From: a virus
Taxonomy: Duplodnaviria > Caudoviricetes
Strand: one strand, 5' to 3'
IMG/VR virus record: IMGVR_UViG_3300037781_000042
Coordinates: 1 to 64,000 of that record
DNA: 64,000 bases
Each line of letters begins with the position of its first letter. Positions within the stretch are counted from its first letter, which is position 1. The position numbers and the translations under genes were made by a program. Under the pieces are notes generated by a model, which did no database searches, was not told the origin of the DNA, and worked only from the letters and a program-made list of their open reading frames with translations. Positions 6,955-62,691 of the stretch are shown here, one piece after another.

Positions 6955-7329
6955 ATGTACAAATTATTTGAAGAATATTTTGGTGATTTAAACGAATCGG
7001 AATCCTTTGACGATTATCCTAAAGCAGCAACAGAAAATGCTAAAAAAGCATTAAAATGGAGAGATGAATATGGAAGAGATGTTGTAAAAGGAGGAACTAA
7101 AGTAGGATGGGCTAGAGCAAATCAATTAGCTAAAAGAGAATCTTTATCTAGAGATGTAGTTTCTAGAATGGCACAATTCAATAGACATAGAAAAAATTCT
7201 AAAATAGCAGATAAATATAAAGGCGAGCCGTGGAAGGATAACGGATATTTAAGTTGGCTTTTGTGGGGCGGAGATGCCGGAGTCGACTGGGCCATTCGTA
7301 AAATGGAACAACTTAGAAAAAATAAATAA
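6955..7329 (+). CDS. Small phage head-associated domain protein with an N-terminal capsid-targeting-like peptide
   Basis: YPKAATENAKKALKW..GGTKVGWARANQLA..LS...V.RM..F.RH...GYLSWLLWGGDAG resembles a domain seen in phage head-morphogenesis proteins. N-terminus is KLFEEYFGDLNE. Confidence 0.55.
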   Translation: MYKLFEEYFGDLNESESFDDYPKAATENAKKALKWRDEYGRDVVKGGTKVGWARANQLAKRESLSRDVVSRMAQFNRHRKNSKIADKYKGEPWKDNGYLSWLLWGGDAGVDWAIRKMEQLRKNK

Positions 7330-39538: not shown

Positions 39539-39563
39539 CTATATATTTCTGCAAAATATATAG
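39539..39563. promoter_or_regulatory. Back-to-back divergent late promoters
   Basis: CTATATATT at 39539-39547 (minus-strand AATATATAG) and AATATATAG at 39555-39563. Confidence 0.65.
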
Positions 39564-39588: not shown

Positions 39589-42500
39589 GTGAGTAACCAA
39601 AAGAAATATTATTCAGATATAAATCTTCTTAAAAATTATTTAAGAAATGTTAAAATAGATTCAAAAGATAATCCCCAAACTTCAGATGTAGAAGTAAATG
39701 AAGTATTTTTTAAAGATGGAGATGCTTCTAATTTGTGGACTTATAATGGATCAGAAATTGTTAAAATAGGATCTCAAGCAACTGTAAATTCATTTACAAT
39801 TGACGAAGATCTAGATTTAAACGATTTTAAAATAATTAATGTGGCAGAACCAGAAGATCCAAATGATGTAGTTACTTTACAGTATTTCCAAGATTATATT
39901 AATTCTACAGATGCTTTTGATTTAGCAAATTCTACAATAACATATACAGATTCTATTGCTTTAGATTCTGATATTAATCATCTTGATAATATGATGTTAA
40001 TAGATGCTGCTATTGTAGCTTCTATTGAAGCACCTACAAAATTAGAAAATTCTACTTTTTCTGTAAGTGCTGAAACATTTGAAGCAAAGCTTCCTTCAGG
40101 ATTAAATGCCAGTTGGTATACCGAAGATTCTGCCGGAGATACAATAGAAAATTATGTCACAGTTCCAAACATTTCTTTAGATGTAAGTTTTCTTTCTGGA
40201 GTATATTCAGATTCCAATACTTATGGAAACGTTTCTGTTGTATTAGACGGTTCTTTAAATGCCACAATATTAGATGTTGCAACTTTAGAAGATAATAATT
40301 ATTCTTCTGGAAGATTAGATGCAAATGTTCAATTATTATCTAATGATGAATATTCTGAATATTGGAATGAATTATCTACTAAATCTAATTTAACTATAAA
40401 AGATGAAGGTGTAATTAAGTTTCAATTAATCTCAAGTAAAACTGGGGATGGACCAATACAAAAATTGTATTATGATGATGAAACTTCTATCCCATCTTTT
40501 TCAGCTGCTTTAACAGCTACTCCAGATACTGAAGTTTATAAATATTTATCTAATGTTTCTTATTATAAAGTAGGAACTACTATAGATTATGGATATACAG
40601 CAGCTTCTGGTATTTATAATAAATCTTATCATCCTACAGAAGTTTCTAAAGTTTATATTAATTCAAAATCTTTTGATGATATAATTCATAATCCAGTAGG
40701 AACTCCAGCATATAATGATACTTTAGTAGTTTCTGATACTGCGACAATTGATGTAGTAGATACTACAACAGGGTTATTGAAAGGAACCGTTTATGCTAAA
40801 TTACAGAAACCTGATGGCCAAGAAGCAGTAGATTTTGTAGAACTTTCTAAAGGAATAAATACGTATGGAGATGAGGCTACAAATTTAGAAGAATACTTCT
40901 TAGATGAAAGTTATAGATTAGAGCTTGGAGGAGAAGTAGCATGGGATTCTGAAACTTCATTTGATGATGCAGATGGAGGACCAGACGCTCAAGTAAAAAA
41001 TGGATATTTACTATATCCTATAGCAGCAGATTATGGAAATAGTCCTACTGGAAATAAAGAATATAATAGAAGATTTTATCCTGGTGTTCCTGTAAATTCA
41101 GCATATTTAAAATTTGAAGGAATTAATATTACTGATATTTCTCCTTATGGAACAGGATCTTTAAATGTATTAATAGAATTAACTGATCAATCAGTATTTT
41201 ATGATTTAGGAAAATCTACTGGAGGAGGAGATGGTTCTTCAAGAGCAGATTCTATTCCAGGACAAGAACAGATATTAAAAGATAATATTGTTAATTTTAC
41301 TTTACTTACTAATTCTACGGGATTAGAATCTACTGAATCGTATAAATTAATTGTTATCTTTAGAGATAATTCTCATACCCTAACTTCTATAATCCATTAC
41401 GATACTTTCTTTGATGTAAGTTCAGATGAAGATAATGAATTTGGTATTAGAGGACCTCAAGGTAACCAAGGAGCTGCCGGAGCAGATGGGAGTTCCGGAC
41501 CACAAGGAAATGACGCAAATTTAACGGGTGCTACAGGTGCACAAGGTGTACAAGGGAATCAAGGATGGCAAGGTGAGATTGGATTTCAAGGCAACCAAGG
41601 CAACCAAGGCAACCAAGGATTTCAAGGTAACCAAGGATTTCAAGGTAATCAAGGATGGCAAGGTGAAATAGGTCCGACTGGTGTACAAGGTACCCAAGGT
41701 AACCAAGGATGGCAAGGTAACCAAGGTTTAAAAGGTAACCAAGGAGATTTTGGTCCTACTGGCATACAAGGAAACCAGGGTAACCAAGGATGGCAAGGTT
41801 CAATTGGATTCCAAGGTAACCAAGGATGGCAGGGTGAAATAGGTCCTACTGGCGTACAAGGAAACCAGGGTAACCAAGGATGGCAAGGTTCAATTGGATT
41901 CCAAGGTAACCAAGGATGGCAGGGTGAAATAGGTCCTACTGGTGTACAAGGAAACCAAGGAAACCAGGGTAACCAAGGATGGCAAGGAAACCAGGGTAAT
42001 CAAGGTTTAAAAGGAGATACCGGTGACCAAGGTGTACAAGGTAACCAAGGTAACCAAGGATGGCAAGGTTTAAGAGGATTTCAAGGTAATCAAGGATGGC
42101 AAGGTGAAATAGGTCCGACTGGCGATCAAGGAAACCAAGGTAACCAAGGATGGCAAGGTTTAAAAGGAGATACTGGTGATCAAGGAAACCAAGGTAATCA
42201 AGGTTGGCAAGGTAATCAAGGTTTAAGAGGATTTCAAGGTTTAAAAGGAGATACGGGAGATACCGGCAACCAAGGGTTCCAAGGTAACCAAGGATGGCAA
42301 GGTTTAAAAGGAGATACTGGTGATCAAGGGTTCCAAGGAAATACTGGTGATCAGGGCGATCAGGGACCACAAGGTAACCAAGGTAACCAGGGTAACCAAG
42401 GATGGCAAGGTTTAAAAGGAGATACTGGTGATCAAGGTGTACAAGGTAACCAAGGAAATCAGGGTTTAAAAGGAGATACTGGAGATCAAGGGTTCCAGGG

Positions 42501-43419
42501 TAACCAAGGATGGCAAGGTTTAAAAGGAGATACTGGTGATCAAGGGTTCCAGGGTAACCAAGGATGGCAAGGTTTAAAAGGAGATACTGGAGATCAAGGT
42601 GTACAAGGTAATGTAGGTTCAAATGGTGCTGACGGTAATCAGGGTAACCAAGGATGGCAAGGTAATGTAGGTTCAAATGGTGCTGACGGTAATCAGGGTA
42701 ATCAGGGTAATCAGGGTTTAAAAGGAGATACTGGAGATCAAGGGTTCCAAGGAAATACTGGTGATCAGGGCGATCAGGGACCACAAGGTAACCAGGGTAA
42801 CCAGGGTAACCAAGGATACCAGGGAAATCAAGGTATAAGAGGTTTCCAAGGGTTTCAAGGAAACGTAGGCTCAAATGGTGCTAATGGTAATCAGGGTAAC
42901 CAAGGGTTCCAGGGTAACCAAGGATGGCAAGGTTTAAAAGGAGATACTGGAGATCAAGGGTTCCAAGGTAATGTAGGTTCAAATGGTGCTGACGGTAATC
43001 AGGGTAACCAAGGAAACCAGGGTAATGCTGGTACTATAGGGGTTGATGGCAATCAAGGTAATCAGGGTAACCAAGGAAACCAGGGTAATGCTGGTACTAT
43101 AGGGGTTGATGGTAACCAGGGTAACCAAGGATGGCAAGGAAATGAAGGTACATTTGGAGGAACATTAACATCTGATATAACTCCTAATTTAGATAATACT
43201 CATGATTTAGGGTCTGCTAGTTTTAGAATGGCATCTGTCTATACAAACGATTTGTTTACTGGTGATATTCATTTCTTAAATAAATGGAGAGCAATTGAGT
43301 ATGTAAATAATGATCCTGAACAATTAATAGATGGTTTAATATTCGTAGATGCTAATAATATAGAAATATTTAGAATAGGTCAAGATGGAATATATTTTAA
43401 AGGAAATAAAATAAATTAA
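39589..43419 (+). CDS. Collagen-like virion fibre protein
   Basis: 1276 aa, GTG start. About 190 G-X-Y triplets (GNQ/GWQ/GFQ/GDT) between a large N-terminal region and a short C-terminal domain (ITPNLDNTHDLGSASFR). Confidence 0.85.
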   Translation: MSNQKKYYSDINLLKNYLRNVKIDSKDNPQTSDVEVNEVFFKDGDASNLWTYNGSEIVKIGSQATVNSFTIDEDLDLNDFKIINVAEPEDPNDVVTLQYFQDYINSTDAFDLANSTITYTDSIALDSDINHLDNMMLIDAAIVASIEAPTKLENSTFSVSAETFEAKLPSGLNASWYTEDSAGDTIENYVTVPNISLDVSFLSGVYSDSNTYGNVSVVLDGSLNATILDVATLEDNNYSSGRLDANVQLLSNDEYSEYWNELSTKSNLTIKDEGVIKFQLISSKTGDGPIQKLYYDDETSIPSFSAALTATPDTEVYKYLSNVSYYKVGTTIDYGYTAASGIYNKSYHPTEVSKVYINSKSFDDIIHNPVGTPAYNDTLVVSDTATIDVVDTTTGLLKGTVYAKLQKPDGQEAVDFVELSKGINTYGDEATNLEEYFLDESYRLELGGEVAWDSETSFDDADGGPDAQVKNGYLLYPIAADYGNSPTGNKEYNRRFYPGVPVNSAYLKFEGINITDISPYGTGSLNVLIELTDQSVFYDLGKSTGGGDGSSRADSIPGQEQILKDNIVNFTLLTNSTGLESTESYKLIVIFRDNSHTLTSIIHYDTFFDVSSDEDNEFGIRGPQGNQGAAGADGSSGPQGNDANLTGATGAQGVQGNQGWQGEIGFQGNQGNQGNQGFQGNQGFQGNQGWQGEIGPTGVQGTQGNQGWQGNQGLKGNQGDFGPTGIQGNQGNQGWQGSIGFQGNQGWQGEIGPTGVQGNQGNQGWQGSIGFQGNQGWQGEIGPTGVQGNQGNQGNQGWQGNQGNQGLKGDTGDQGVQGNQGNQGWQGLRGFQGNQGWQGEIGPTGDQGNQGNQGWQGLKGDTGDQGNQGNQGWQGNQGLRGFQGLKGDTGDTGNQGFQGNQGWQGLKGDTGDQGFQGNTGDQGDQGPQGNQGNQGNQGWQGLKGDTGDQGVQGNQGNQGLKGDTGDQGFQGNQGWQGLKGDTGDQGFQGNQGWQGLKGDTGDQGVQGNVGSNGADGNQGNQGWQGNVGSNGADGNQGNQGNQGLKGDTGDQGFQGNTGDQGDQGPQGNQGNQGNQGYQGNQGIRGFQGFQGNVGSNGANGNQGNQGFQGNQGWQGLKGDTGDQGFQGNVGSNGADGNQGNQGNQGNAGTIGVDGNQGNQGNQGNQGNAGTIGVDGNQGNQGWQGNEGTFGGTLTSDITPNLDNTHDLGSASFRMASVYTNDLFTGDIHFLNKWRAIEYVNNDPEQLIDGLIFVDANNIEIFRIGQDGIYFKGNKIN
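41443..43152 (+). repeat. Coding tandem repeat (collagen G-X-Y block 1)
   Basis: Degenerate 9-nt units such as ggtaaccaa, ggatggcaa and ggtttaaaa. Confidence 0.9.
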
Positions 43420-47930: not shown

Positions 47931-48578
47931 TTGGAAATTAAAAATACTACTTTAATATTAATAGATTGTGTAGATATAGATAGAGCAATAGATTCTATGA
48001 ATATCACTAAAAATTATTGTGATTTTGATGATGTTAAACTATTATCCTCAATAGACACAAATCATCCTGATTTTATAGAAATACCTCATATAGATTCTAT
48101 ACCTGAATATAGTAAGTTTGTTCTTAGAGATTTAACTAATTATGTAGATACAGACTATGTTTTAATTACTCAGTGGGATGGATTTATCTTAAATCCAGAA
48201 GCTTGGAATGATGAATTTTTTAAATATGACTATATTGGAGCTCCTTGGAATTTAAGAAATTGGGTAGTCGGAAACGGTGGTTTTTCTTTAAGATCTAAAA
48301 AATTGATTGATTTAACATCAGATATATACAATAAGTTCAATGTTCACGCAGTGAAGCATCCAGAAGATTTTATAATCTGTGGATATTTTAGAGATTTTTT
48401 AGAACGTTTTTATGATATAAAATTTCCTACTGTAGAGTTTGCTGATACTTTTTCAGTTGAAGATAGAGGTAAATGGACAGGACAATTTGGATTTCATAGT
48501 TTTGAAAAGTTAGACATTTTTAAAGATGGGTGGATTCCTCCTGATATTGAATATAAAACAGAATTATTTGTCAAATAA
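47931..48578 (+). CDS. DUF5672-like putative glycosyltransferase
   Basis: LITQWDGFI, YDYIGAPW, VGNGGFSLRSK, PED and FGFH. TTG start. Confidence 0.7.
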   Translation: MEIKNTTLILIDCVDIDRAIDSMNITKNYCDFDDVKLLSSIDTNHPDFIEIPHIDSIPEYSKFVLRDLTNYVDTDYVLITQWDGFILNPEAWNDEFFKYDYIGAPWNLRNWVVGNGGFSLRSKKLIDLTSDIYNKFNVHAVKHPEDFIICGYFRDFLERFYDIKFPTVEFADTFSVEDRGKWTGQFGFHSFEKLDIFKDGWIPPDIEYKTELFVK

Positions 48579-53284: not shown

Positions 53285-56200
53285 ATGGCAATTTTTAATA
53301 AAGCAGATCAGCTTTATAAGCATCTATTAAATAAAAAATTAACTTCTTCTAATAAAGATTATTATGAAGAGGTTACTGATTCTCGAATAGGGAATATTGC
53401 TGCTCAATATATTTGGGCAGATAATATTTCTGAAACTCCTCCTGTTTCTACAACAGCAACAATTCAAGTTTATACAGATAAAATTCTAAAAGAAGATCCT
53501 ACTGTAGATGATTCTAGAGTATGGAGTGCTGTTACAGATCATTCTATCGATCATGATTTTTCTGCTCGTTCAGATGGATCAAATCCTAGATTAGCTAATT
53601 GGATTCCTCCTCAATTTGGAGAAGATTATAGAATAGTAATTAAAGATTCATTAGGAAATGAACTTTCAAGATATACTGATTGGCTATTTGATTACGAAAC
53701 AGGTACATTAGTTTTTGCAGATACTCCTCCAGTAAATAGACCTTTTTCTGTTACAGGATATAGATACATAGGAAATTTAGGTATTACTTCTGCTACAGGA
53801 TTTACTGGCGCTCAAGGTGCTCAGGGACCACAAGGAAATCAAGGTAATCAAGGATGGCAAGGGATTCCTGGTTCTGCTACAGCAACAGGTGCTCAAGGAA
53901 ATCAAGGAAACCAGGGAGATTTTGGACCACAGGGATGGCAAGGTAACCAAGGTAACCAAGGAAACCAGGGTAACCAAGGATGGCAAGGTAATGCAGGTAC
54001 TATAGGTGCTGATGGGGTGCAAGGAAACCAGGGTAACCAAGGATGGCAAGGATTTGGTGGGGTTCCTGGTCCTACAGGTGCTCAAGGATGGCAGGGTAAT
54101 CAGGGTAACCAGGGTTGGCAAGGTTCTAAAGGAGATCAAGGTATTAGAGGTTTTCAAGGTAACCAAGGTAACCAAGGATGGCAAGGAAACCAAGGTAACC
54201 AGGGTTGGCAAGGGATTCCTGGTTCTGCTACAGCAACAGGTGCTCAAGGTAATGAAGGTCCTCAAGGTGGAATAGGTCCTCAAGGTAATCAAGGTAATCA
54301 AGGATGGCAGGGTAATCAAGGTAATCAGGGTTGGCAAGGTTCTGGTGTACAAGGCAATCAAGGTAATCAAGGTAATCAAGGATGGCAGGGTTCTGGCGTT
54401 CAAGGATCTCAAGGCAATCAAGGATGGCAGGGTAATCAAGGTAATCAAGGATGGCAAGGTTCTGGTGTACAAGGCAATCAAGGATGGCAAGGATTTAAAG
54501 GAGATAAAGGTAATCAAGGAAATAAAGGTAACCAAGGAGATTTTGGTCCTACTGGTGTACAAGGTAACCAGGGTAACCAAGGATGGCAAGGTTCTATCGG
54601 ATTTCAAGGCAACCAAGGATGGCAAGGTGAAAAAGGAGACACTGGAGATACTGGAGATCAAGGTGTGCAAGGTAACCAGGGTAACCAAGGATGGCAAGGT
54701 TCTGGTGTACAAGGATCTCAGGGTTTAAAAGGTAATCAAGGTAATCAAGGATGGCAAGGTTCTAAAGGAGATATTGGTTTACAGGGTTGGCAAGGTTCTA
54801 AAGGAGATACTGGAGATACTGGAGATCAAGGTGTACAAGGTAACCAGGGTAACCAGGGTAGAAGAGGATTCCAAGGTTTAGTTGGGAATCAGGGTAATCA
54901 AGGATGGCAAGGTAATCAAGGATGGCAAGGTGAAATAGGTCCGACTGGTTCTACGGGGGTACAAGGTAACCAGGGTAACCAGGGTAACCAAGGTTTAAAA
55001 GGAAACCAGGGTAACCAAGGATGGCAAGGTGAAATAGGTCCAACGGGTCCAACTGGAGATCAAGGTGTACAAGGGAATAAAGGGAATCAAGGGAATCAAG
55101 GTAGAAGAGGATTTCAAGGTTTAGTTGGGAATCAGGGTAACCAAGGATGGCAGGGTAATCAAGGTAACCAAGGTAACCAGGGTTGGCAAGGTTTAAAAGG
55201 AGATACTGGTGTACAAGGTAATCAAGGTAACCAAGGATGGCAAGGTTTTAAAGGAGATACTGGTGTACAAGGTACCCAAGGTAATCAAGGATGGCAAGGT
55301 GAAATAGGTCCGACTGGTTCTACGGGGGTACAAGGGTCTCAAGGTTTAAGAGGATATCAGGGTAACCAAGGATGGCAAGGTAATGCAGGAACAGATGGTA
55401 ACCAAGGTAACCAAGGAAATCAAGGTAACCAGGGTAATCAAGGATGGCAAGGTTTAATTGGTTTACAGGGTGTACAAGGAAATCAGGGTAACCAAGGTAA
55501 CCAAGGTAATGTTGGATTCCAAGGTAATCAAGGTAATCAAGGAAACCAAGGTAATCAAGGACCTTTAACTTTAGCAGGAGACAATTGGGCATATAACACT
55601 AAAACTATTTATGGTTATGGAGCACCATGTACTTATGAACCGCCATTATTAAAATTTGAAGGTTCGTTAGTAGGAGCTGAAGTTTCTTTAAAGGATGAAC
55701 ATTTTGTAGATACTGATGTTACTTTATCAGGCTCGTTGACTAAAAAACATTTTTATTACGATTTAAATTTTAAATGGAACGGAGATTCTGATAATCATTC
55801 AAACGCTTCAGATGTAGATGAAATTTACATCGGAGTATATTTTTACAACAATGATGATTCTGTATATGAATTAGTAGATTCTTATAGAGCTTCAGCAGAT
55901 GAAAATTTAGATTATTCTTTACAAACTAGAGCAGCTTTTTATCCTACAGATGATACAAAAACTTCTAGATTTAAGATAATTCTTTCTACTAGTTCAACAT
56001 TTACTACAACAAGTACTATTACACCAAATGCGAATTTAGATAAGTTTTTATTTGAATTTAATGTGTATGAAGTTGCTATTGGATCATATAGAGGATTTTC
56101 TAGTGGAGGACCTGGATTCCAAAAATATCAAGCAATTGTTGCTTCTGGTATAAATGTTCCTGAGTCAAACACTGGAGATACTTATGTTGACATGTCAGAC

Positions 56201-58813
56201 TGTTCTATTTATAAAAAAGGAAATACTTGTAAAGAAAATTCTAATGGATTTTTACTTTATAATGATAGTACTTCTACTGATGTAGAACAATATTATAGAG
56301 GATTCCAATCTTCTATTGAATTGAATACAGGAAGTTTAAAAAATGTTATAGATGGAAATACTTTAGATTATAGTCAATCTGATGATGGTTTAGATTATAC
56401 AAATAATATAATTTTAACAGAAACTTTAAGTATTGTAAACCATAAAGAAACTTCTGAAAATGATTTATTTTTATACGGGTACAATTTATTTGAAAAATTT
56501 GATGATCCTACAAATTCTGATTATCAAACAATATTAGAAAATTTAAGAGATTCTAATAATGAATTATACGTTTATTTAGATTTCTTATTATATGAAGATA
56601 CAGATAGAGTTGGAAATACTTTAACTATAGATACTCAAGAAGGGTCTAAGATTCCGCATGAACCTCTTACAGAAGATTTTGATTATGGAGTATGGTTAGT
56701 AGATAAAGATTCATATCAATTTAAAAATATGAAAAAATGGAATCGTATAGATTTAAATTCATATTTAACAGCCGAAACTTTATCAAGTACAAGTAAGACA
56801 TATAAAATTTATAATGGATCTACTAGTTATTCTACAAATACTGTTACAGATTGTTATAAAGTAACTTCTGTAATGTTGAAATATAATGCATTTACGGATG
56901 GAGGAGAACCTTTAGGAGTAGATGGTTATTGGGATGTAGTAGAAATTAATAAAGAATTAAAAGATATAAATATTTCAGCAGATTCTTATTATCCTATTAA
57001 ACCTACTAGAGATGTTCTTATAGATTCTGTATCTGCTACAGAAGAAGAATTAAATAAATTGTATACTTGGGGGTCTCCTGGAGTGTCTTTAGATACTTCT
57101 ACATTTACTGTAGAATGGGATTTCTCTAAAGATTTTATTGGATCTAATTATAACGAATTTATTTATAAAGCTAAATATTATAATTGGTCAAATTCTTCTT
57201 TTGATGAATTTACTACAGGAGGCGGATGGTCAGGTACAATAAATCGAGAAATGTATAATCCTAATACAGAATCTTGGGTAGATGTAAGTTCTGATGAATT
57301 TGATATTGATACCAATAAAGTAGATTGTGACACTGATACCTATACAAAATTAAGATATACGTGTTCAAATGGTAATGGTGCAGGAACTATTACTTTAAAT
57401 ACAATGGCCGTTGTAGTAGATTTAGGATGTATGGCAGACTGTTGTTGGGAAAAAATTGGAACACAGGATTGTGGAAGTTGTGGATGCAATGACTCCACAG
57501 ATTGTGATGAGGTTACTACAGTAGATTACGCTGGATATTTAGATGATACTTATTATAATACTCATCCTAAACCGCTTTCATTAAAATCTGTGTCTTGTGA
57601 AGATGCTCCATCTTGTTTTGAAGTTCCTTTCAGCTTTGTTGAAAATACATATTCATCTGATATTAATTATCACAACAGTGTTAGAAATTCTAAATATGGA
57701 TGGGACAAATATGATAATGACCAGATAGTAGAAATAGGATATAATGATGGATTAGGTGATTTTTGGATAACATATAAACTTAAAAAAGGGGTAACTATAT
57801 GTACTGATGGTCTTCATACAAAAACTATAGATTATGGAGATACTGTTTATACTTACGTTTCAGAAGATGGAACAACTTGGTATGATTGGGCAACCCCATC
57901 AAATAGAACTGATTTTGAAGATTGTAATGAAAAGAAAGTAAGATACATTAAGATAGAATCTGAAGGTACTTTTGATTTAGAATACATTTATTTAAATGCT
58001 AAAAATTGTGGTGATGGGTGTTGTTATTCTTCAGCTAGACCAGATAATTATCATTATGAAGATACTTACAGTGCAGTTCAAGTTTATTATATTGGGGATT
58101 CCGTAAACTATAATGATAACATTTATATTAATCAATCAGATGAACCTTTAATCGGTGTTACTCCGGGAACAGGAGATTGGTCTTATTTTGCAAATTCAGA
58201 TCCTACAGGACTAGTTGGGCCTCAAGGTAACCAAGGAGTAAATGGTTCTAATGGTAACCAGGGTAACCAAGGGAATCAGGGTTCTGGAGGAGATACTGGT
58301 AATCAAGGTAACCAAGGTAACCAGGGATTGGTTGGTGCATCTGGTGGAGGATGGGATGAAGAGGAAATAGTCACTTCTCAAGAAACTTTTACAACAGCAA
58401 CGTTAAGTACATCATCTGCGTTAGATATATCTTCCGGTTTACCTGCATCTGGAGTAGGCGAAACTTTATATGAGATAGAATTTAAATTGGCATTAGATGT
58501 TCAAGGCGCTTTAACCGGATATAAAATTGAAATAGAAGGAACACAAAATCATAATAGCGATATAACTTATTTATGTTCTGAAGGAGGTTCATTGTCAGGT
58601 AATTATGTTATCAATAGTATGACGTCTGATATATTTACAGCTACTGTACCTAACTTTACAGGAAAGTTCTTTGTTGAAGGTTCAGGTGTAATAGAAACTG
58701 CTGCTTTAGCATCTGATGTTAGAGTTCAAATAGCATGTGACGATGATACAGGTCCAAATCAAATTCAATTGAATAATGGAAGTTATTTAAGATTAAAGAA
58801 TATTTCACCTTAA
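53285..58813 (+). CDS. Giant collagen-like virion fibre protein
   Basis: 1842 aa. About 195 G-X-Y triplets (53798-55564), a long beta-rich Cys-containing region, and a short second collagen block (58208-58345). Confidence 0.85.
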   Translation: MAIFNKADQLYKHLLNKKLTSSNKDYYEEVTDSRIGNIAAQYIWADNISETPPVSTTATIQVYTDKILKEDPTVDDSRVWSAVTDHSIDHDFSARSDGSNPRLANWIPPQFGEDYRIVIKDSLGNELSRYTDWLFDYETGTLVFADTPPVNRPFSVTGYRYIGNLGITSATGFTGAQGAQGPQGNQGNQGWQGIPGSATATGAQGNQGNQGDFGPQGWQGNQGNQGNQGNQGWQGNAGTIGADGVQGNQGNQGWQGFGGVPGPTGAQGWQGNQGNQGWQGSKGDQGIRGFQGNQGNQGWQGNQGNQGWQGIPGSATATGAQGNEGPQGGIGPQGNQGNQGWQGNQGNQGWQGSGVQGNQGNQGNQGWQGSGVQGSQGNQGWQGNQGNQGWQGSGVQGNQGWQGFKGDKGNQGNKGNQGDFGPTGVQGNQGNQGWQGSIGFQGNQGWQGEKGDTGDTGDQGVQGNQGNQGWQGSGVQGSQGLKGNQGNQGWQGSKGDIGLQGWQGSKGDTGDTGDQGVQGNQGNQGRRGFQGLVGNQGNQGWQGNQGWQGEIGPTGSTGVQGNQGNQGNQGLKGNQGNQGWQGEIGPTGPTGDQGVQGNKGNQGNQGRRGFQGLVGNQGNQGWQGNQGNQGNQGWQGLKGDTGVQGNQGNQGWQGFKGDTGVQGTQGNQGWQGEIGPTGSTGVQGSQGLRGYQGNQGWQGNAGTDGNQGNQGNQGNQGNQGWQGLIGLQGVQGNQGNQGNQGNVGFQGNQGNQGNQGNQGPLTLAGDNWAYNTKTIYGYGAPCTYEPPLLKFEGSLVGAEVSLKDEHFVDTDVTLSGSLTKKHFYYDLNFKWNGDSDNHSNASDVDEIYIGVYFYNNDDSVYELVDSYRASADENLDYSLQTRAAFYPTDDTKTSRFKIILSTSSTFTTTSTITPNANLDKFLFEFNVYEVAIGSYRGFSSGGPGFQKYQAIVASGINVPESNTGDTYVDMSDCSIYKKGNTCKENSNGFLLYNDSTSTDVEQYYRGFQSSIELNTGSLKNVIDGNTLDYSQSDDGLDYTNNIILTETLSIVNHKETSENDLFLYGYNLFEKFDDPTNSDYQTILENLRDSNNELYVYLDFLLYEDTDRVGNTLTIDTQEGSKIPHEPLTEDFDYGVWLVDKDSYQFKNMKKWNRIDLNSYLTAETLSSTSKTYKIYNGSTSYSTNTVTDCYKVTSVMLKYNAFTDGGEPLGVDGYWDVVEINKELKDINISADSYYPIKPTRDVLIDSVSATEEELNKLYTWGSPGVSLDTSTFTVEWDFSKDFIGSNYNEFIYKAKYYNWSNSSFDEFTTGGGWSGTINREMYNPNTESWVDVSSDEFDIDTNKVDCDTDTYTKLRYTCSNGNGAGTITLNTMAVVVDLGCMADCCWEKIGTQDCGSCGCNDSTDCDEVTTVDYAGYLDDTYYNTHPKPLSLKSVSCEDAPSCFEVPFSFVENTYSSDINYHNSVRNSKYGWDKYDNDQIVEIGYNDGLGDFWITYKLKKGVTICTDGLHTKTIDYGDTVYTYVSEDGTTWYDWATPSNRTDFEDCNEKKVRYIKIESEGTFDLEYIYLNAKNCGDGCCYSSARPDNYHYEDTYSAVQVYYIGDSVNYNDNIYINQSDEPLIGVTPGTGDWSYFANSDPTGLVGPQGNQGVNGSNGNQGNQGNQGSGGDTGNQGNQGNQGLVGASGGGWDEEEIVTSQETFTTATLSTSSALDISSGLPASGVGETLYEIEFKLALDVQGALTGYKIEIEGTQNHNSDITYLCSEGGSLSGNYVINSMTSDIFTATVPNFTGKFFVEGSGVIETAALASDVRVQIACDDDTGPNQIQLNNGSYLRLKNISP
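53798..55564 (+). repeat. Coding tandem repeat (collagen G-X-Y block 2)
   Basis: ggtaaccaa / ggatggcaa units. Confidence 0.9.
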
Positions 58814-58836
58814 AATTATAGACTAAACTAAATTTT

Positions 58837-58845
58837 AATATATAG
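58837..58845 (+). promoter_or_regulatory. Putative late promoter AATATATAG
   Basis: Exact motif before the protease gene. Confidence 0.65.
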
Positions 58846-58894
58846 ATTATATTTTAAAATAAAAAATCTTCATTGAAGATTAGTAAAAAAAGAA

Positions 58895-60862
58895 ATGAAA
58901 AAACCACTATTAATATTACAAAAACACGATTTTCTTATTGAAAGTACGGAGTACAATCAACAAGAAGGTACGATGATTTTAGAAGGTACTTTTGCAGTAT
59001 TTGATAAAGTAAATAATAATTCTAGAATTTATGAAGCGGCTGCTTATTTACCTCATTTGAAGTATTTGCAGGAAAAAGCAAAAAGAAGAAAATTGTATGG
59101 TGAAATAGATCATCCTGATAGATTTGATGTTGCTTTATCTAAAGCATCTCACTTAGTTGAATCTATTTGGCACGATCCTAAAACTAATACAATTAAAGGA
59201 AGAGTTAAATTATTAAAAACTAAATATGGCGATCATATTAAAGGAATTATAGAGTCTGGAGGAGTAGTAAGTATTTCATCTAGATCTGCTGGTTCTGTAA
59301 ATGAAAGTACTAGAAAAGTTGATATTAAAAGAATATTTACTTATGATTTTGTTGGTGAAGGAGGTTTTGGAAACAGTGCTGAATTAAGTTTAGTAAATGA
59401 AAGCTTTAATGTAGAAGATCCGAACGTATCTATTTACGAAGTATCTGATGAATTTATTGCTAATACTAAGGAGCCAGAAATTAAAAGTTTTATAAATGAA
59501 ATGTTAGTTGAATTAAACCCAGAAGAACAAGGGGTTTTAAATGAAACTAAATATATAGATAAAGATTCAAATAAACAAAAACAAAATACAATGAAAGAAA
59601 ATTTCGTAACCAAAGAACAGATGAAAGGTTACTCTGAAATGGTTAAAGAAAATTTTGATAATCTAAAAAATAAAGTTAACGAATTATCTAAAGGAACAAC
59701 TGATAAAGCTCTTTTAGAAAATTATAATGAAGTTAAAGCTGAAATTTCTAAGATTATTGAATATTCTGAGCATATAGCAGAGAACTTTAATAATAACGAA
59801 ACTACAGTAGAAAAGTTAAAATCTTTTGTTAATTATTTAGCAGAAAATTTAAATAAAGTAATTAATTATTCTGATTACTTATCTTCTACTATAGGAAAAG
59901 ATATTCAATCGTTAAGAGAAGAAAACGAAAAAATAATCCAGTATTCTAATTACATTGCTGAAAATGTTGAAAATAACATTAAATATTCAGAGTATTTAGC
60001 AGAAGGATTAAATGATGTTGTAGATCATAACGATTATATTGCTGAGAATGTAAATAAAAACAGACAATATTCTGAATATCTAGCTGAACACATTAATAAT
60101 AATATTGAGTATTCTGAATACGTTGCTGAAAATGTAAACAAAGCAATTCAGTATTCTGAATATTTAGCAGAAAATGTAAATAAAAATATTGAGTATTCTG
60201 AGTATGTTGCTGAGAATGTAAACAAAGCAATTGAATATTCAAATTATATTTCAGAAAATTTAGATAAATCTATTCAGTATTCTGAATATATTGCAGAGAA
60301 CGCACTACCTTCTTTACCAAATAAAGAAGTAAATGAATCTCTATCTGAAAAAATGACTTCTTTCTTAACATCAGTTGAAAAACAAAAAACTGAAATTAAC
60401 AAGAAAAAGCATTTAACATCTTTCTTGACTGAAGCTAATCAGGAAAAATTTGAAAAATTACCTGAAACTGATAAACAAAAAGTTTTAGTTGCTGTATTAG
60501 AAAATCAATGTCAAAATGAAGAAGATGTTTTAAAGGTTTGGGAACAAATTTTAACTACTCCTGAGAGAGCTAGATTAAAATTCATTTTCGAACACATGCC
60601 GGCAAGCGTAAAAGCTGGATGGGATAACTTAGATGAAGCTAAACAACATAAGCTTTTAGAGAAATCTAAATTCTTTGATTTGAGCAGCTCTATTAAAGTT
60701 AAGGATTTTTGGATGAAATCAGGATTGATTCAAAAAGAATCTCCATTAGATAAAATTAATGAGAGTCTTTCACAATCATCTTTATATTCACCATCTAATG
60801 ATTCTAAAGATACGACAAAGAAATTAGGATATTCGATCGATAGATTTAAAGATTTATTGTAA
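58895..60862 (+). CDS. gp21: Prohead protease (T4 gp21-like) fused to a scaffold/core domain (gp22-like)
   Basis: N-terminus has LEGTF....VNNNSRIY, YGEIDHPD, ASHLV, GRVKLL.T..G and SISSRSAGSV. The C-terminal helical region has 14-aa YSEY[LVI]AE repeats. Lies directly upstream of the MCP. Confidence 0.85.
   Translation: MKKPLLILQKHDFLIESTEYNQQEGTMILEGTFAVFDKVNNNSRIYEAAAYLPHLKYLQEKAKRRKLYGEIDHPDRFDVALSKASHLVESIWHDPKTNTIKGRVKLLKTKYGDHIKGIIESGGVVSISSRSAGSVNESTRKVDIKRIFTYDFVGEGGFGNSAELSLVNESFNVEDPNVSIYEVSDEFIANTKEPEIKSFINEMLVELNPEEQGVLNETKYIDKDSNKQKQNTMKENFVTKEQMKGYSEMVKENFDNLKNKVNELSKGTTDKALLENYNEVKAEISKIIEYSEHIAENFNNNETTVEKLKSFVNYLAENLNKVINYSDYLSSTIGKDIQSLREENEKIIQYSNYIAENVENNIKYSEYLAEGLNDVVDHNDYIAENVNKNRQYSEYLAEHINNNIEYSEYVAENVNKAIQYSEYLAENVNKNIEYSEYVAENVNKAIEYSNYISENLDKSIQYSEYIAENALPSLPNKEVNESLSEKMTSFLTSVEKQKTEINKKKHLTSFLTEANQEKFEKLPETDKQKVLVAVLENQCQNEEDVLKVWEQILTTPERARLKFIFEHMPASVKAGWDNLDEAKQHKLLEKSKFFDLSSSIKVKDFWMKSGLIQKESPLDKINESLSQSSLYSPSNDSKDTTKKLGYSIDRFKDLL
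59550..59558 (+). promoter_or_regulatory. Internal late promoter for a scaffold-only product
   Basis: Exact AATATATAG inside the protease gene, 33 nt before the in-frame ATG 59591, which has an A-rich leader. Confidence 0.55.
59939..60316 (+). repeat. Nine tandem 42-nt (14-aa) coding repeats in the scaffold
   Basis: For example EYSEYVAENVNKAI and QYSEYLAENVNKNI. Confidence 0.85.
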
Positions 60863-60870
60863 GAAATTCT

Positions 60871-60879
60871 AATATATAG
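60871..60879 (+). promoter_or_regulatory. Putative late promoter AATATATAG
   Basis: Exact motif before the major capsid gene. Confidence 0.7.
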
Positions 60880-60918
60880 ATTATAATTTTTAAATAAAAA
60901 CAAATAAAAGAAAATAAA

Positions 60919-62691
60919 ATGAGAGATTATGGAATAGAACTTTCTCCACTATTAGAGAAAGAAGTTTTCGACCAATGGGCTCCAGTACTTAAGGAGACTG
61001 ATATGGTTAACGAAAACGTAGACGCGGAAAGATTGTCTTTGATGACAAAGATTGCGCACAATCAAGCATTAGCTATGAACGAGGCTGATGGCGGATTACC
61101 AAATAATGCAAATTTAGTTGGTATGGGCAACCCTTCTTTTGGTACTACTTTAGGTGGTCAAAATTCATTTGTAACTGGTGATACTGGTTCTGGTGATAAA
61201 TGGGGTTCTCCTTTCGCTATTGCAATGCAAGTAGCTGCTAAGACTGTTGGTTTTGACATTGTAAATACTATCCCGATTTCACAATCTGCTGGTATGATTC
61301 ATTATGTTGATTACTTATATGCAGACGGTAAATTAGATGGTGTTGGAACTGAAGCTCCTACATTATTCAAAATTAATGTAACAGATTTTAGTTCTTTCAG
61401 TGCTGCTGAAGGAGATAAATTCTTTGGTACTTCAACTGGTACAACAGCAATTGCTGCTACTGGTGATGCTACTGGTAATGCTGCTTATTTAGAGTATGTT
61501 GGTCCTTCAAGAAAAACTGGTTACCCAATTTTTAAATTGATTTCAACGGGTACTTTTGAAAATGATGACTATACTAAAACTGATACTTTAACATTAGCTC
61601 AAATTTTTGATGGTGATGCTGGTATGGTTGCTGCAGCTAACGAAGATGAAGGAACAAACAGTTTAACTGTTTCAACTCCTAAAGCTGTTACTGCTTCTGC
61701 TGAATATGTAGTTGCAATGGAAGATAACGTTTATGGTTATGCTAACGGTGCTGGAGGCCAAGCAGGTGTTCAGTATTCAGGCAACTGGATGGACGGTCTT
61801 AACTTAAATGAAGCTGCAAGAAGAGGCGAAGGTGAGTCTGATGACTATAAAGACATGGGAATGAGAGTAACTTCTAAGTATATTGAATGTGGTACTTTCA
61901 AAGTATCTATCTCAGTTACTCAGGAGCAATTACAAGATATGAAGAGAAACTTTGGTTACGACATCGTATCTAAAGCTCAAAACGCTCTTGTAAACGAAAC
62001 TTCTCAATCAATTAACAGAAATATCATTTCTAGAGCTTTTGCTTTAGGTTGGACTAACCACTTGAACAGTAATGTTGCTGAAGGTGTTAACTTTAACTTA
62101 GCATTAGATCCAACTTATACAACTGCTAACGTAAATGCAACGTATAAGAAAAATGATAACACTAATGGTTCATTAGTAATTCCTGTATTTGGTACTTACT
62201 CTTCAGCTTCAGCATCAGCTGAAACTCAAGATTCTAACATCAAGAGAATTGTTAACAGAATAATCCAAGTTTCTAACTTCATTGCTCACAGAGGTAGATT
62301 AGGTGGAGCTACTGGTATTGTAACTAATGGTCAAGTTGCTGCGGCACTTCAATCAGTTGCTAATTATTCAGCTGCATCTTTTGATAATAAACTTGGTACT
62401 CCAGGTTCATTATACCCTGCAGGTTCAATCTTAGGAATGACTATTTATGTTGATCCTAATATGAAATGGAATGACAACAGAGTTTGTGTATTCAGAAAAG
62501 GTACTAATGATGATCCAGGACTTAAGTTTTTACCATATGTCCTTGCTGAGAGCGTTTCAGTTATTAACCCTAATACTGCTGCTCCAAGATTGTTTGTAAT
62601 GTCAAGATATGCATTAACTGAGTATGGTCAACATCCAGAAATGCAATATGTAACATTCTATATCAAAGCAGGTACTAACGGTTTAGGTTAA
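60919..62691 (+). CDS. gp23: Major capsid protein (T4 gp23-like)
   Basis: QWAPVL, MNE/A probable maturation site, TIPISQSAGMI, SVTQEQLQDMKRNFGYD, EINR-like SINRNII, GMTIYVDP and GLKFLPYV..SRYAL. Confidence 0.9.
   Translation: MRDYGIELSPLLEKEVFDQWAPVLKETDMVNENVDAERLSLMTKIAHNQALAMNEADGGLPNNANLVGMGNPSFGTTLGGQNSFVTGDTGSGDKWGSPFAIAMQVAAKTVGFDIVNTIPISQSAGMIHYVDYLYADGKLDGVGTEAPTLFKINVTDFSSFSAAEGDKFFGTSTGTTAIAATGDATGNAAYLEYVGPSRKTGYPIFKLISTGTFENDDYTKTDTLTLAQIFDGDAGMVAAANEDEGTNSLTVSTPKAVTASAEYVVAMEDNVYGYANGAGGQAGVQYSGNWMDGLNLNEAARRGEGESDDYKDMGMRVTSKYIECGTFKVSISVTQEQLQDMKRNFGYDIVSKAQNALVNETSQSINRNIISRAFALGWTNHLNSNVAEGVNFNLALDPTYTTANVNATYKKNDNTNGSLVIPVFGTYSSASASAETQDSNIKRIVNRIIQVSNFIAHRGRLGGATGIVTNGQVAAALQSVANYSAASFDNKLGTPGSLYPAGSILGMTIYVDPNMKWNDNRVCVFRKGTNDDPGLKFLPYVLAESVSVINPNTAAPRLFVMSRYALTEYGQHPEMQYVTFYIKAGTNGLG

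Follow-up and report, generated by a model that had tools for sequence, protein, structure and literature searches.

Building a large capsid calls for scaffold molecules in large numbers and protease molecules in small ones. In herpesviruses the UL26 gene encodes a protease-scaffold protein, and nested within it lies the 3'-coterminal scaffold gene UL26.5, which has its own promoter. The scaffolds of phages lambda (C/Nu3) and Mu (I/Z) are made by internal ribosome binding on a shared mRNA; the proteases lambda C and Mu I come from families other than S77, lambda C being ClpP/S49-like. Nested protease/scaffold pairs have been documented for lambda, for HSV-1 and for the archaeal virus HFTV1 (bioRxiv 10.64898/2026.09.13.751334). 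In the last of these a fused 'protease/scaffold' annotation was resolved into the nested pair gp17/gp17.5, the C-terminal part exceeding the N-terminal part 3.1-fold in ribosome coverage and 7.8-fold in abundance, and Ribo-seq, alongside even RNA coverage, showed the regulation to be translational (bioRxiv 10.64898/2026.09.13.751334). In OsHV-1 and other herpesviruses the full-length transcript lies about 10-fold below the scaffold transcript (PMC11565193), while T4 proheads contain about 576 copies of gp22 and about 100 of gp21 (PMC5694885). In T4 the cut follows the Glu of a short hydrophobic-x-E motif (PMC9026906). T4 gene 21 can also be started in frame at Met45, which yields a short gp21 that is essential (Hintermann and Kuhn 1992, cited in PMC9026906). 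A promoter hidden in the coding sequence has so far been documented as a solution to the ratio problem for herpesviruses; in phages with fused protease-scaffold genes the control of the ratio is usually left open, and the genes are annotated plainly as 'protease'.

The window analysed here, 64,000 nucleotides in length, comes from an uncultured pond phage whose genome record of 211.6 kb (~212 kb; CheckV completeness 82%) has a GC content of 27% and coding DNA totalling 195.6 kb. In a run search, the sequencing runs containing DNA of this phage were pond and aquatic metagenomes only, with no RNA run among those listed. The plus strand at 58895-60862 carries an open frame of 655 amino acids (75.5 kDa) running, in order, through a gp21-type protease domain, a disordered linker, long helices and a C-terminal helical domain; translation confirms the single ORF described in an earlier, sequence-only reading of this DNA. 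The in-frame ATG noted at the same time (59591-59593) is indeed codon 233, and from Met233 to the stop codon a nested frame (59591-60862, plus strand) would specify a putative scaffold-only product of 423 residues and 49.2 kDa. Directly downstream of the fused ORF, again on the plus strand, lies a gp23-type major capsid protein gene (60919-62691; 590 amino acids; Pfam PF07068, E 5e-30), in whose product a scan for [LIVF]NE sites places a candidate propeptide cut between E32 and the following N of M-V-N-E32-N. The leader of the full-length gene contains a small 7-bp hairpin (58865-58881, plus strand; MFE -4.9 kcal/mol, z -1.7) that leaves the full-length start codon uncovered, and a relative with 76% identity (L081) has a hairpin of other sequence at the equivalent place (-7.3 kcal/mol, z -3.9).

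Our preferred reading, to which we assign a probability of roughly two in three, is that this locus is a nested pair, a 75.5-kDa protease-scaffold accompanied by a 49-kDa scaffold alone that would be expressed from an internal promoter. The nested-gene interpretation had been put forward in the sequence-only reading, and the conservation in relatives of both the internal motif and the internal Met now supports it.

The N-terminal domain belongs to Peptidase S77, the family of T4 gp21, by profile and by fold. Residues 20-155 (58952-59359, plus strand) match PF03420 with 53.9 bits against a cut-off of 27, and match the sequence of the T4 gp21 structure 5JBL with an E-value of 2e-7. When the modelled domain (pLDDT 70-89) was compared with known structures using Foldseek, 5JBL came first (E 3e-9, TM 0.71-0.73) with the herpesvirus proteases, which share the assemblin fold, next. 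Three residues, H73, H86 and S128, are invariant in alignments of 17 and 23 sequences. Two of them are of catalytic type, H73 in a D-H-P motif and S128 in an I-S-S-R motif, and at both of these alignment positions the 5JBL chain has Ala, presumably engineered for inactivity.

Between the protease and the first long helix, residues 156-239 (59360-59611, plus strand) form a largely disordered linker, its two disordered stretches having pLDDT values of 27-39 and 29-32, and here are found the internal motif, the leader, Met233 and three candidate cleavage sites. Met233 itself is within the disordered stretch of residues 207-239 (pLDDT about 30), directly after which the helix begins. The promoter-like core AATATATAG at 59550-59558 (plus strand) is read through the codons AAA TAT ATA GAT (K219-Y-I-D222). 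The identical 9-mer occurs at 58837-58845, before the fused gene, and at 60871-60879, before the capsid gene; at these places the longer promoter-like motifs are AATATATAGATTATAT (58837-58852, plus strand), a full consensus match 57 nt upstream of the full-length start, and AATATATAGATTATAA (60871-60886, plus strand), 47 nt upstream of the capsid gene. The 'exact late motif' that had been claimed for the linker holds for the 9-mer and not for the full 16-mer consensus aAATATATAgATTATAa: the internal copy continues ATAAAGA, the ATTATA half is absent, and the downstream half scores 1.4 bits, where the promoter-like copies on either side reach 5.2 and 6.6. By overall score the internal copy ranks about 23rd of 32 upstream copies, that is, in the lower third.

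From the motif to the internal start extends an A-rich, SD-less leader (59559-59590, plus strand; A fraction 0.68, without G). Over the 25 nt preceding Met233, A makes up 68%, G is absent and there is no SD-like word, a context in the top 1% among the 932 internal in-frame ATGs of the genome. The capsid-gene leader, to which a resemblance had been pointed out earlier, is 80% A. The A-richness before Met233 is partly explained by the linker being rich in K and N in a genome of 27% GC. A scan of positions 58600-61100 for sigma-70-type promoters and intrinsic terminators gave nothing beyond shuffles inside the ORF. The internal start is preceded, as far as sequence can indicate, by an expression signal of its own, a candidate promoter.

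Elsewhere in the genome the position of this motif points to promoter function. The 16-mer aAATATATAgATTATAa is the genome-wide upstream consensus, and ATATATAG is present in 21 copies in the 211.6-kb record, 20 of them intergenic or no more than 137 nt upstream of a start; the internal site is the only copy deep inside a gene. The 32 motif copies precede the starts of genes by 34.5 nt at the median, a figure that may be compared to the 40 nt separating the internal copy from Met233, and the genes behind them include those for two collagen-like fibres, a head-tail adaptor, the protease and the capsid protein. Within coding DNA the motif is scarce. Measured against synonymous-codon shuffles, sense-strand ATATATA is observed twice, one of these being the internal site, where 57.5 +/- 7.4 copies are expected, and ATATATAG once on the coding sense strand where 10.9 are expected. 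The reverse complement is equally depleted in coding strands (CTATATAT, 0 against 7.2 expected; TATATAT, 2 against 53.7), and control AT-rich octamers reach 0.7-0.9 of expectation; the depletion on both strands could also be explained by a general avoidance of TATATA. Late promoters of T4 type are not what was found: the upstream motif is aAATATATAgATTATAa, the T4 late box TATAAATA stands in coding DNA at 0.8 of expectation and so shows neither enrichment nor avoidance, and T4 gp55 had no match in the 211.6-kb record in a single-sequence search, which could miss a distant homologue.

More than 3,500 full-length homologues of the fused ORF were identified in uncultured jumbo and mega-phages. 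The fusion had been thought unusual, a view not borne out since it is the rule in this very large uncultured clade; as for T4-like heads, the layout does depart from that of T4 and Sphingomonas phage PAU, where the genes are separate, but thousands of metagenomic relatives have it as their usual arrangement. The internal linker Met is present in 173 of 173 full-length database homologues, in 74 of 74 IMG/VR loci and in all 35 non-redundant members. Its position floats, 4-15 residues before an invariant V238-T239, in an otherwise variable segment, and with Met at a frequency of 1.39% its chance occurrence would be about 0.17 per sequence.

Conservation of the motif at synonymous sites, which the sequence-only reading had proposed as a check, proved to be extensive: ATATATA is kept 31-161 nt upstream of the internal ATG in 30 of the 35 non-redundant relatives, the spacing being 31-78 nt in 28 and -158/-161 in two more (L083/L084). 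All 30 motif-bearing relatives use ATA for Ile, on average 23% of Ile codons, and TAT for Tyr (69%), a choice for which log10 P is -24.9 if the relatives are independent, and P about 4e-7 with only 8 independent lineages. The reading frame of the motif varies, being xxG ATA TAT Axx (I-Y) in the 22 members of the main clade, xxA TAT ATA xAx (Y-I) in the six of the window's own clade and AAT ATA TAT GAA (I-Y) in L083/L084. Since the main clade has I-Y where the window's clade has Y-I, it is the DNA that is conserved and not the peptide. The preceding base likewise varies by clade. In the main clade G stands before the core in 21/22 internal, 22/26 gene-upstream and 37/45 other flank copies, in the window's clade A takes this place, and the internal copy (G-ATATATA or A-ATATATA) follows its own clade's intergenic version. 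A rare-codon pause at the domain boundary was considered as a reason for the conserved ATA and rejected: it leaves the neighbouring TAT and the flanking G/A unexplained, and it also fails on the change of frame between clades and on the identity with the intergenic motif.

In a synonymous-codon scan the top window of the ORF consists of the 'KN' codons just before the Met (0.92, compared to 0.49 overall); the motif window reaches 0.67, and several of the other top windows fall between residues about 175 and 236. The leaders of the relatives have a mean A fraction of 0.59 compared to 0.39 for the ORF. Between motif and Met there is no other ATG in 20 of 30 relatives, most exceptions lying no more than 9 nt from the motif, although this is a weak test. 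Five of the 35 relatives retain the Met without an internal ATATATA, and in four megaphages (462-735 kb) the internal site is degenerate (ATATATG) or lost and the capsid gene has its own copy, so that the promoter part is less universal than the start codon. Database proteins of 428-456 residues starting at the conserved Met looked like natural 'split' relatives, but both of those inspected were artefacts: in L091 a run of N interrupts the protease domain, and in L092 the gene directly adjoins one on the minus strand that is unrelated and carries a secretion tail of bacterial type, the contig being probably chimeric or rearranged.

Several of these observations bear on an alternative that we regard as improbable, namely that Met233 is used by internal translation initiation on the full-length mRNA, without an internal promoter, in the style of lambda C/Nu3 and Mu I/Z. 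The ATATATA would then act in the RNA, for example as an AU-rich ribosome standby, an S1-binding enhancer or a processing site of SD-less late messages. The motif is always on the coding strand, about 11-77 nt from starts, and for that reason would also be in the mRNA if transcripts begin further upstream; late-type genes are mostly SD-less (SD-like words in 16% versus 37%), the second half of the 16-mer is absent from the internal copy, and the Met persists without the exact motif in the five relatives and the megaphages. On the other hand, the equal purging of the reverse complement fits better with a signal in DNA, on either strand. Motif copies also stand back to back between divergent genes, at 39546(-)/39556(+), 76878(-)/76890(+) and 154453(-)/154459(+), and several copies are just 11 nt from the ATG, neither of which is readily accommodated by a role in the RNA.

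The part of the protein shared by the two putative products begins with a long helical region (residues 240-470; 59612-60304, plus strand), modelled as helices by AF2 with low confidence, in which YSEYLAENxxKxI repeats of about 14 residues are conserved among fused-ORF homologues; in the DNA a tandem array with a period of 42/84 nt occupies 60039-60300. There follows a conserved C-terminal helical domain (residues 500-610; 60392-60724, plus strand; pLDDT 73-82) with invariant P569, W576, F605 and W606. This is a candidate capsid-binding end, for which a complex prediction of residues 480-655 with the capsid protein, scoring 0.01, argues neither for nor against binding. The domain is weakly similar (E 6e-5) to the C-terminus of a 1207-residue protease polyprotein of Chryseobacterium phage MA9V-2, and in a phage collection the C-terminal part matched uncultured megaphages only. 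No Pfam or PHROG family was found for residues 233-655 or 480-655, nor any homology to T4 gp22, and PAU gp152 showed no similarity to the C-terminal part. A search of the phage's own genome for PAU gp152 found nothing, an uninformative result, and with this probe no other scaffold candidate emerged. Given its position, helical repeats, C-terminal domain and cleavage-type sites, the C-terminal part is probably the capsid scaffold. The description of the ORF as gp21 and gp22 combined is accordingly sound as regards gp21 (PF03420, 5JBL) but, since homology to gp22 or to any scaffold family is not detectable, is for gp22 an analogy of position and architecture.

The cleavage-type sites are abundant, the fused protein having seven [LIVF]NE sites against 2.2 per 1000 residues genome-wide, an enrichment of about 5-fold. 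Three phi-N-E candidate cleavage sites are in the linker (plus strand; E169, at 59399-59401, E202 and E217), E169 being invariant and positioned just after the protease domain. Glu623, in K-I-N-E-S with the cut before S (60761-60763, plus strand), is a candidate C-terminal processing site in an invariant column, and a further phi-N-E site, E481 (60335-60337, plus strand), is not conserved among fused-ORF homologues. A [LIVF]NE site is also present in the first 25 residues of 28 other proteins of the genome.

Abundant sites, two of them invariant, and the sites near the N-termini of other proteins would also suit a single polyprotein of the P2 gpO type, which we consider distinctly unlikely. 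In that case the scaffold would always be made with the protease and later self-cleaved at E169, E202 or E217, and the internal Met and motif would be relics of once-separate genes, as in PAU, or would serve another purpose. T4 gp21 cuts after L/I-x-E (PMC9026906), and in part of the homologues the Met sits within an I/L-M-E string fitting the gp21 rule. However, the Met is universal and its I/L and E neighbours vary, with N-M-D, T-M-K, E-M-A and E-M-S among the forms observed. Nor would a relic have kept the minor Ile codon in every one of 30 diverged members, switched frames or followed its clade's intergenic version of the motif. Furthermore, cleavage and a nested start are compatible, herpesviruses and lambda employing both. 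We hold to be very unlikely the remaining possibility, that the internal element is mainly a capsid-gene promoter and translation from Met233 a by-product or minor. It is true that 27 of 35 relatives lack a motif in the 11-41 nt gap between the fused ORF and the capsid gene, and that the exact internal site is gone from the four megaphages, whose capsid gene has a copy nearby. But in the window phage and two relatives the internal copy persists beside the capsid gene's own, a universal Met and a conserved A-rich leader at a distance of 1.3 kb from the capsid gene would go unexplained, and such a transcript would in any case offer Met233 as its first good AUG.

Under the nested-pair reading, transcription from the motif at 58837 and translation from the ATG at 58895 would yield the long product of 75.5 kDa. 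The internal promoter-like element (core 59550-59558) would direct a shorter transcript starting at about 59565, whose first AUG would be Met233 (59591) and whose product, of 49 kDa, would be identical to the C-terminal two thirds of the long form. This short protein, the high-copy scaffold made from a separate transcript that the sequence-only reading had envisaged, would be the bulk scaffold of the prohead, with which the long form would co-assemble via the shared C-terminal part, bringing protease domains into the prohead in limited number. Once the prohead is assembled, cleavage by the protease would take place at the phi-N-E sites, with the protease releasing itself at E169, fragmenting the scaffold, and trimming the capsid protein and tagged cargo proteins. 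As the internal element is, in most relatives, the nearest promoter-like site before the capsid gene, the short transcript probably carries both scaffold and capsid genes; if it does, this would account for the motif-free region that most relatives have upstream of the capsid gene, the most abundant of their structural genes.

By sequence comparison, a very large group of uncultured jumbo and mega-phages apparently uses a nested gene, probably with a promoter in the coding sequence. More tentatively, and at somewhat under even odds, we envisage a herpesvirus-style design conserved throughout a clade whose uncultured jumbo and mega-phages, with heads of T4 type, number in the thousands, in which an assemblin-fold protease-scaffold fusion is combined with a 3'-coterminal message from a linker promoter, the resulting scaffold-plus-capsid bicistron setting the protease : scaffold : capsid ratio transcriptionally. 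For annotation, the nested-pair reading would supply a rule, that a second CDS beginning at the conserved Met be added for each of more than 3,500 database proteins, and a compact candidate promoter motif for these phages; the locus is also a clear case of an overlapping DNA signal placing a constraint on coding sequence. The herpesvirus-style design, if real, would extend the protease and capsid kinship of tailed phages and herpesviruses from protein folds to gene-expression architecture.

Compared with the systems described at the outset, the locus differs from lambda and Mu in that its internal start is SD-less and has a promoter-like DNA motif before it. It differs from HFTV1, an archaeal virus with a protease of another family, for which an internal promoter was not proposed. 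With T4 genes 21/22 and PAU gp151/gp152 it shares the protease family and the order protease, scaffold function, capsid, although the protease and scaffold genes of T4 and PAU are separate; in PAU the protease (246 residues) ends and the annotated scaffolding gene (277 residues) begins 3 nt apart, at the equivalent boundary. The cultured phage MA9V-2 is similar in that the capsid gene comes directly after that of its 1207-residue 'prohead core protein serine protease', and the two proteins are related at both ends, the N-terminal part being 34% identical over 200 residues. The MA9V-2 polyprotein, which carries 16 [LIVFM]NE sites, has about 900 residues of unrelated material between these ends, unlike the present ORF, and inspection of its gene revealed neither an ATATATA motif nor an obvious conserved internal start. 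In the literature, of which our coverage was incomplete, we found no description of the fusion family or of nested genes in MA9V or PAU; the publications located on MA9V-2 characterise the phage in general terms.

Unlike the herpesviruses, the present virus infects bacteria, its protease being an S77 enzyme of T4 type and its capsid protein of gp23 type. In place of the eukaryotic promoter of UL26.5 its candidate signal is a short AT-rich phage motif, and its putative short transcript, unlike that of UL26.5, probably also carries the capsid gene. Several features are shared with UL26 and UL26.5. As in UL26, an N-terminal serine protease of assemblin fold is followed in one ORF by a predicted scaffold at the C-terminus, and candidate processing sites occur at the protease/linker boundary and near the C-terminus. 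As in UL26/UL26.5, an in-frame internal start is positioned behind a promoter-type signal inside the coding sequence, an arrangement from which, in this phage too, little protease-scaffold and much scaffold would be expected.

The ORF at 58895-60862 (plus strand) is open and probably represents a nested gene with an internal promoter, a reading to which, on the strength of sequence comparison, we assign a probability of about 0.68. Its 655-residue product is a Peptidase S77 member. Residues 26-140 score 53.9 bits, the cut-off being 27, against the Pfam Peptidase_S77 domain (the T4 gp21 family), and the sequence also matches the T4 gp21 structure 5JBL. In an AlphaFold2 model computed from a 17-sequence alignment, residues 20-155 are folded (pLDDT 70-89); Foldseek, run with the protease model, returned 5JBL as the best match (E 3e-9, TM 0.71-0.73), followed by herpesvirus proteases with E values of around 0.03. 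His73, His86 and Ser128 of the protease domain are invariant across the family. Downstream, the model contains a disordered stretch (residues 156-182), two short helices (185-207), a second disordered stretch (207-239, pLDDT around 30), long helices predicted at low confidence (240-470) and a well-predicted helical domain (500-610, pLDDT 73-82). The helical region is made up of YSEYLAENxxKxI-type repeats of around 14 residues, and these 14-residue scaffold repeats appear in the DNA as a tandem array at 60039-60300 with a period of 42/84 nt and 71-80% matches. Their number differs among relatives, the locus L082 having one unit more. The sequence-only reading had T4 gp21 and gp22 joined in one ORF: the S77 protease bears out the gp21 part, but membership of the C-terminal part in the gp22 scaffold family is not demonstrable.

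The phage, uncultured and recovered from pond metagenomes, has a single-contig genome of 211,581 bp and 27% GC, of which the window forms the first 64 kb. Its closest relatives in the phage collection are uncultured 'huge phages' of 462-735 kb (LR756500-04 and LR745206); the nearest cultured phages, Sphingomonas phage PAU and Chryseobacterium phages MA9V-1 and MA9V-2, are more distant. The gene following the fusion ORF encodes a gp23-type major capsid protein (60919-62691). In T4 the portal and core genes stand upstream of the protease gene; here a collagen-repeat gene (53285-58813) lies directly upstream in their place. Its product (1842 residues) and that of a second such gene (39589-43419; 1276 residues) are very large and match tail-fibre PHROGs, and a ATATATAG motif precedes each gene.

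Full-length homologues, 620-750 residues long, number more than 3,500 in a search of 5.8 billion proteins, and IMG/VR holds 365 loci on contigs of up to 482 kb; seven closer relatives (39-76% identity) and four megaphage loci were added to the comparison. The fusion is a family trait: the arrangement, previously called unusual, is so when set against T4 and PAU, yet it is the norm across a large uncultured clade. In PAU, a separate annotated scaffolding gene (277 residues) begins 3 nt past the stop of the 246-residue protease, at the equivalent boundary. The cultured phage MA9V-2 has a 1207-residue protein, annotated 'prohead core protein serine protease' (locus L090, 3399-7022), both ends of which resemble the fusion protein. 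With its N-terminal protease, some 900 residues of other material bearing 16 [LIVFM]NE sites and a related C-terminal domain, it looks like a protease-core polyprotein, the processing of which is testable since the phage is in culture. Database 'scaffold-only' proteins beginning at the conserved Met can be artefacts: at locus L091 an N run falls within the protease domain, and at L092 the phage gene is joined, across a gap of only 7 nt, to a gene on the minus strand whose secretion tail is of bacterial type.

Within the linker, the 9-mer AATATATAG at 59550-59558 is identical to copies before the fusion gene (58837-58845) and before the capsid gene (60871-60879). The ATG at 59591 is in frame as Met233 and defines a nested product of 423 residues and 49.2 kDa; the coordinates in the sequence-only reading of ORF, motif and ATG are all correct. 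It also likened the internal leader to that of the capsid gene. Of the 25 nt leading up to Met233, 68% are A and none is G, and they hold no SD-like word, a context in the top 1% for the genome's 932 internal in-frame ATGs; the capsid-gene leader is 80% A, and both leaders are unstructured. The internal leaders of relatives likewise have no SD-like words and an A content of 0.59, against 0.39 for the ORF. Across the genome, SD-like words precede 16% of genes behind ATATATA[AG] and 37% of other genes. Between the promoter-like motif and the full-length start lies a 7-bp hairpin (58865-58881), which might lower expression of the long form; the relative L081 also forms a hairpin there, from another sequence, and L082 a weak one.

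A linker Met just upstream of the invariant V238-T239 is present in every one of 74 IMG/VR loci, 173 database proteins and 35 non-redundant members, at a distance of 4-15 residues; given a Met frequency of 1.39% in family proteins, about 0.17 per sequence would be expected by chance. Its position is not fixed and the residues beside it differ (M-E, M-D, M-K, M-A, M-S), as would suit a start codon better than a structural residue. It is very probable that Met233 is used by some route. Among 35 representatives at less than 80% identity, ATATATA lies 31-78 nt upstream of the internal ATG in 28 and at -158/-161 in two more. In all 30 copies Ile is encoded by ATA, the mean share of which among Ile codons in these genes is 23%, and Tyr by TAT (share 69%), a choice with log10 P = -24.9 if the sequences are assumed independent. 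The motif nucleotides persist across clades while frame and peptide change, from xxG ATA TAT Axx (K/Q/M-I-Y-R/K) in the main clade to xxA TAT ATA xAx (K/E/Q-Y-I-D/Q/N) in the window's clade. The internal copy tracks its own clade's version of the motif: G precedes the core in the main clade in 21/22 internal copies, 22/26 upstream of the fusion gene and 37/45 elsewhere in the flanks, and A does so in the window's clade, in internal as well as intergenic copies. The relatives' loci total 248 kb; in these, 82 motif copies stand no more than 120 nt ahead of an ORF start, 29 occupy the internal site, and 17 sense and 10 antisense ones fall in deep coding sequence. A synonymous-codon scan of the whole ORF placed its top 7-codon window directly ahead of the internal Met, over the 'KN' codons (identity 0.92, against 0.49 overall), with several further top windows between residues ~175 and 236; the motif window scored 0.67. 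Because conservation of the motif at synonymous sites was thus found, across frames, the comparative test supports the nested interpretation.

The internal ATATATA is absent from the remaining 5 of the 35 representatives, all of which keep the Met. Four megaphages (L093-L096, that is LR756501, LR756504, LR756500 and LR745206; 462-735 kb) retain both fusion and internal Met, in the context L-F-N-M-D/N-K-x-x-F-V-T; their internal site is ATATATG or lost, and an ATATATA copy belongs to the capsid gene in each of them. No motif occurs between fusion ORF and capsid gene in 27 of the 35 representatives (gap 11-41 nt), and internal and capsid-proximal copies are both present in three, the window phage included. 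We infer, with phylogeny as a confounder in both cases, that a message carrying scaffold and capsid would usually begin at the internal element, and that this element may matter less in lineages whose capsid gene has a copy nearby. The alternative that the element serves mainly as promoter for the capsid gene is partly compatible with this reading, yet it leaves unexplained the conserved Met and leader, and the persistence of the internal copy in phages that also have a capsid-proximal one.

Genome-wide, ATATATA[AG] occurs 32 times no more than 140 nt ahead of a gene start (median 34.5 nt), with the 16-mer consensus aAATATATAgATTATAa. The copies flanking the fusion gene (58837 and 60871) are near-perfect; the internal one matches the first half perfectly, continues as ATAAAGA and ranks about 23rd, so that 'exact late motif' is apt for the 9-mer but not for the downstream half of the 16-mer. 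Of 21 copies of ATATATAG, 20 are intergenic or within 137 nt before a start, and several back-to-back motif pairs separate divergent genes. The genes behind the motif include those for the two collagen-like fibres, a head-tail adaptor, the S77 protease and the major capsid protein, making 'late/structural' a reasonable, though tentative, label. Against synonymous-codon shuffles of all 245 called genes, sense-strand ATATATA is found twice in deep coding sequence (57.5 +/- 7.4 expected), once at 59551, and the reverse complement is equally depleted (TATATAT, 2 against 53.7; CTATATAT, none against 7.2); AT-rich octamers taken as controls, among them the T4 late box TATAAATA, which the motif is not, reach 0.7-0.9 of expectation. 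Removed from both coding strands and concentrated upstream of genes, the motif behaves like a DNA-level transcription signal, with general TATATA avoidance keeping a small probability as the cause of depletion. The other deep-coding copy, GATATATAC at 48322-48330 in ORF 47931-48578 (read S-D-I-Y-N), has no close in-frame ATG after it, the next gene starting 271 nt downstream at 48593, and may act as another internal promoter or have survived by chance. In one rival reading, translation would start internally on the long mRNA and the motif would work in RNA; both-strand depletion and the divergent pairs argue against such an RNA-level role. A polyprotein alone, of the P2 gpO type, cannot explain the universal Met or the DNA-level conservation across frames.

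Under the nested gene with its internal promoter, two messages would give two proteins with a common C-terminus: a long one from 58837 encoding the 75.5-kDa protease-scaffold, and a short one from ~59565 encoding the 49-kDa scaffold and running on into the capsid gene. Scaffold-only chains would build the core, the long chain co-assembling through the shared helical and C-terminal parts to give a sub-stoichiometric number of proteases, and maturation cleavage at φ-N-E sites would then clear it. Published ratios fit this logic of few proteases and much scaffold: ~576 gp22 to ~100 gp21 in T4 (PMC5694885), a full-length transcript ~10-fold lower in herpesviruses (PMC11565193) and, in the archaeal virus HFTV1, a C-terminal part in 7.8-fold excess (bioRxiv 10.64898/2026.09.13.751334).

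Seven [LIVF]NE strings occur in the fusion protein (E137, E169, E202, E217, E263, E481 and E623), the genome-wide rate being 2.2 per 1000 residues; two of them, E169 just past the protease fold and E623, do not vary within the family. As T4 gp21 cleaves after L/I-x-E (PMC9026906), it is likely from this placement and invariance that the protease frees itself from the scaffold and then fragments the latter after assembly. The capsid protein has a candidate site at M-V-N-E32, and 28 other proteins of the phage (for example at 6955, 17121, 17787 and 33348) have [LIVF]NE within their first 25 residues. Many of these have an MNKEFKTYKEF(L/I)NE-type leader, which suggests T4-style capsid-targeting tags cut by the S77 protease. 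Cleavage would complement the nested start without competing with it; lambda and herpesviruses use both.

We found no published description of the nested arrangement in this fusion family, within an incomplete coverage of the literature. The nested protease/scaffold idea itself is established already: lambda C/Nu3, Mu I/Z and HFTV1 gp17/17.5 are like the reading proposed here, and so is HSV UL26/UL26.5, where a protease of the same fold class stands at the N-terminus, the scaffold is nested and a signal lies within the coding sequence. The novelty appears to lie in the type of head, the size of the clade and the apparent maintenance of a promoter-like signal inside coding sequence.
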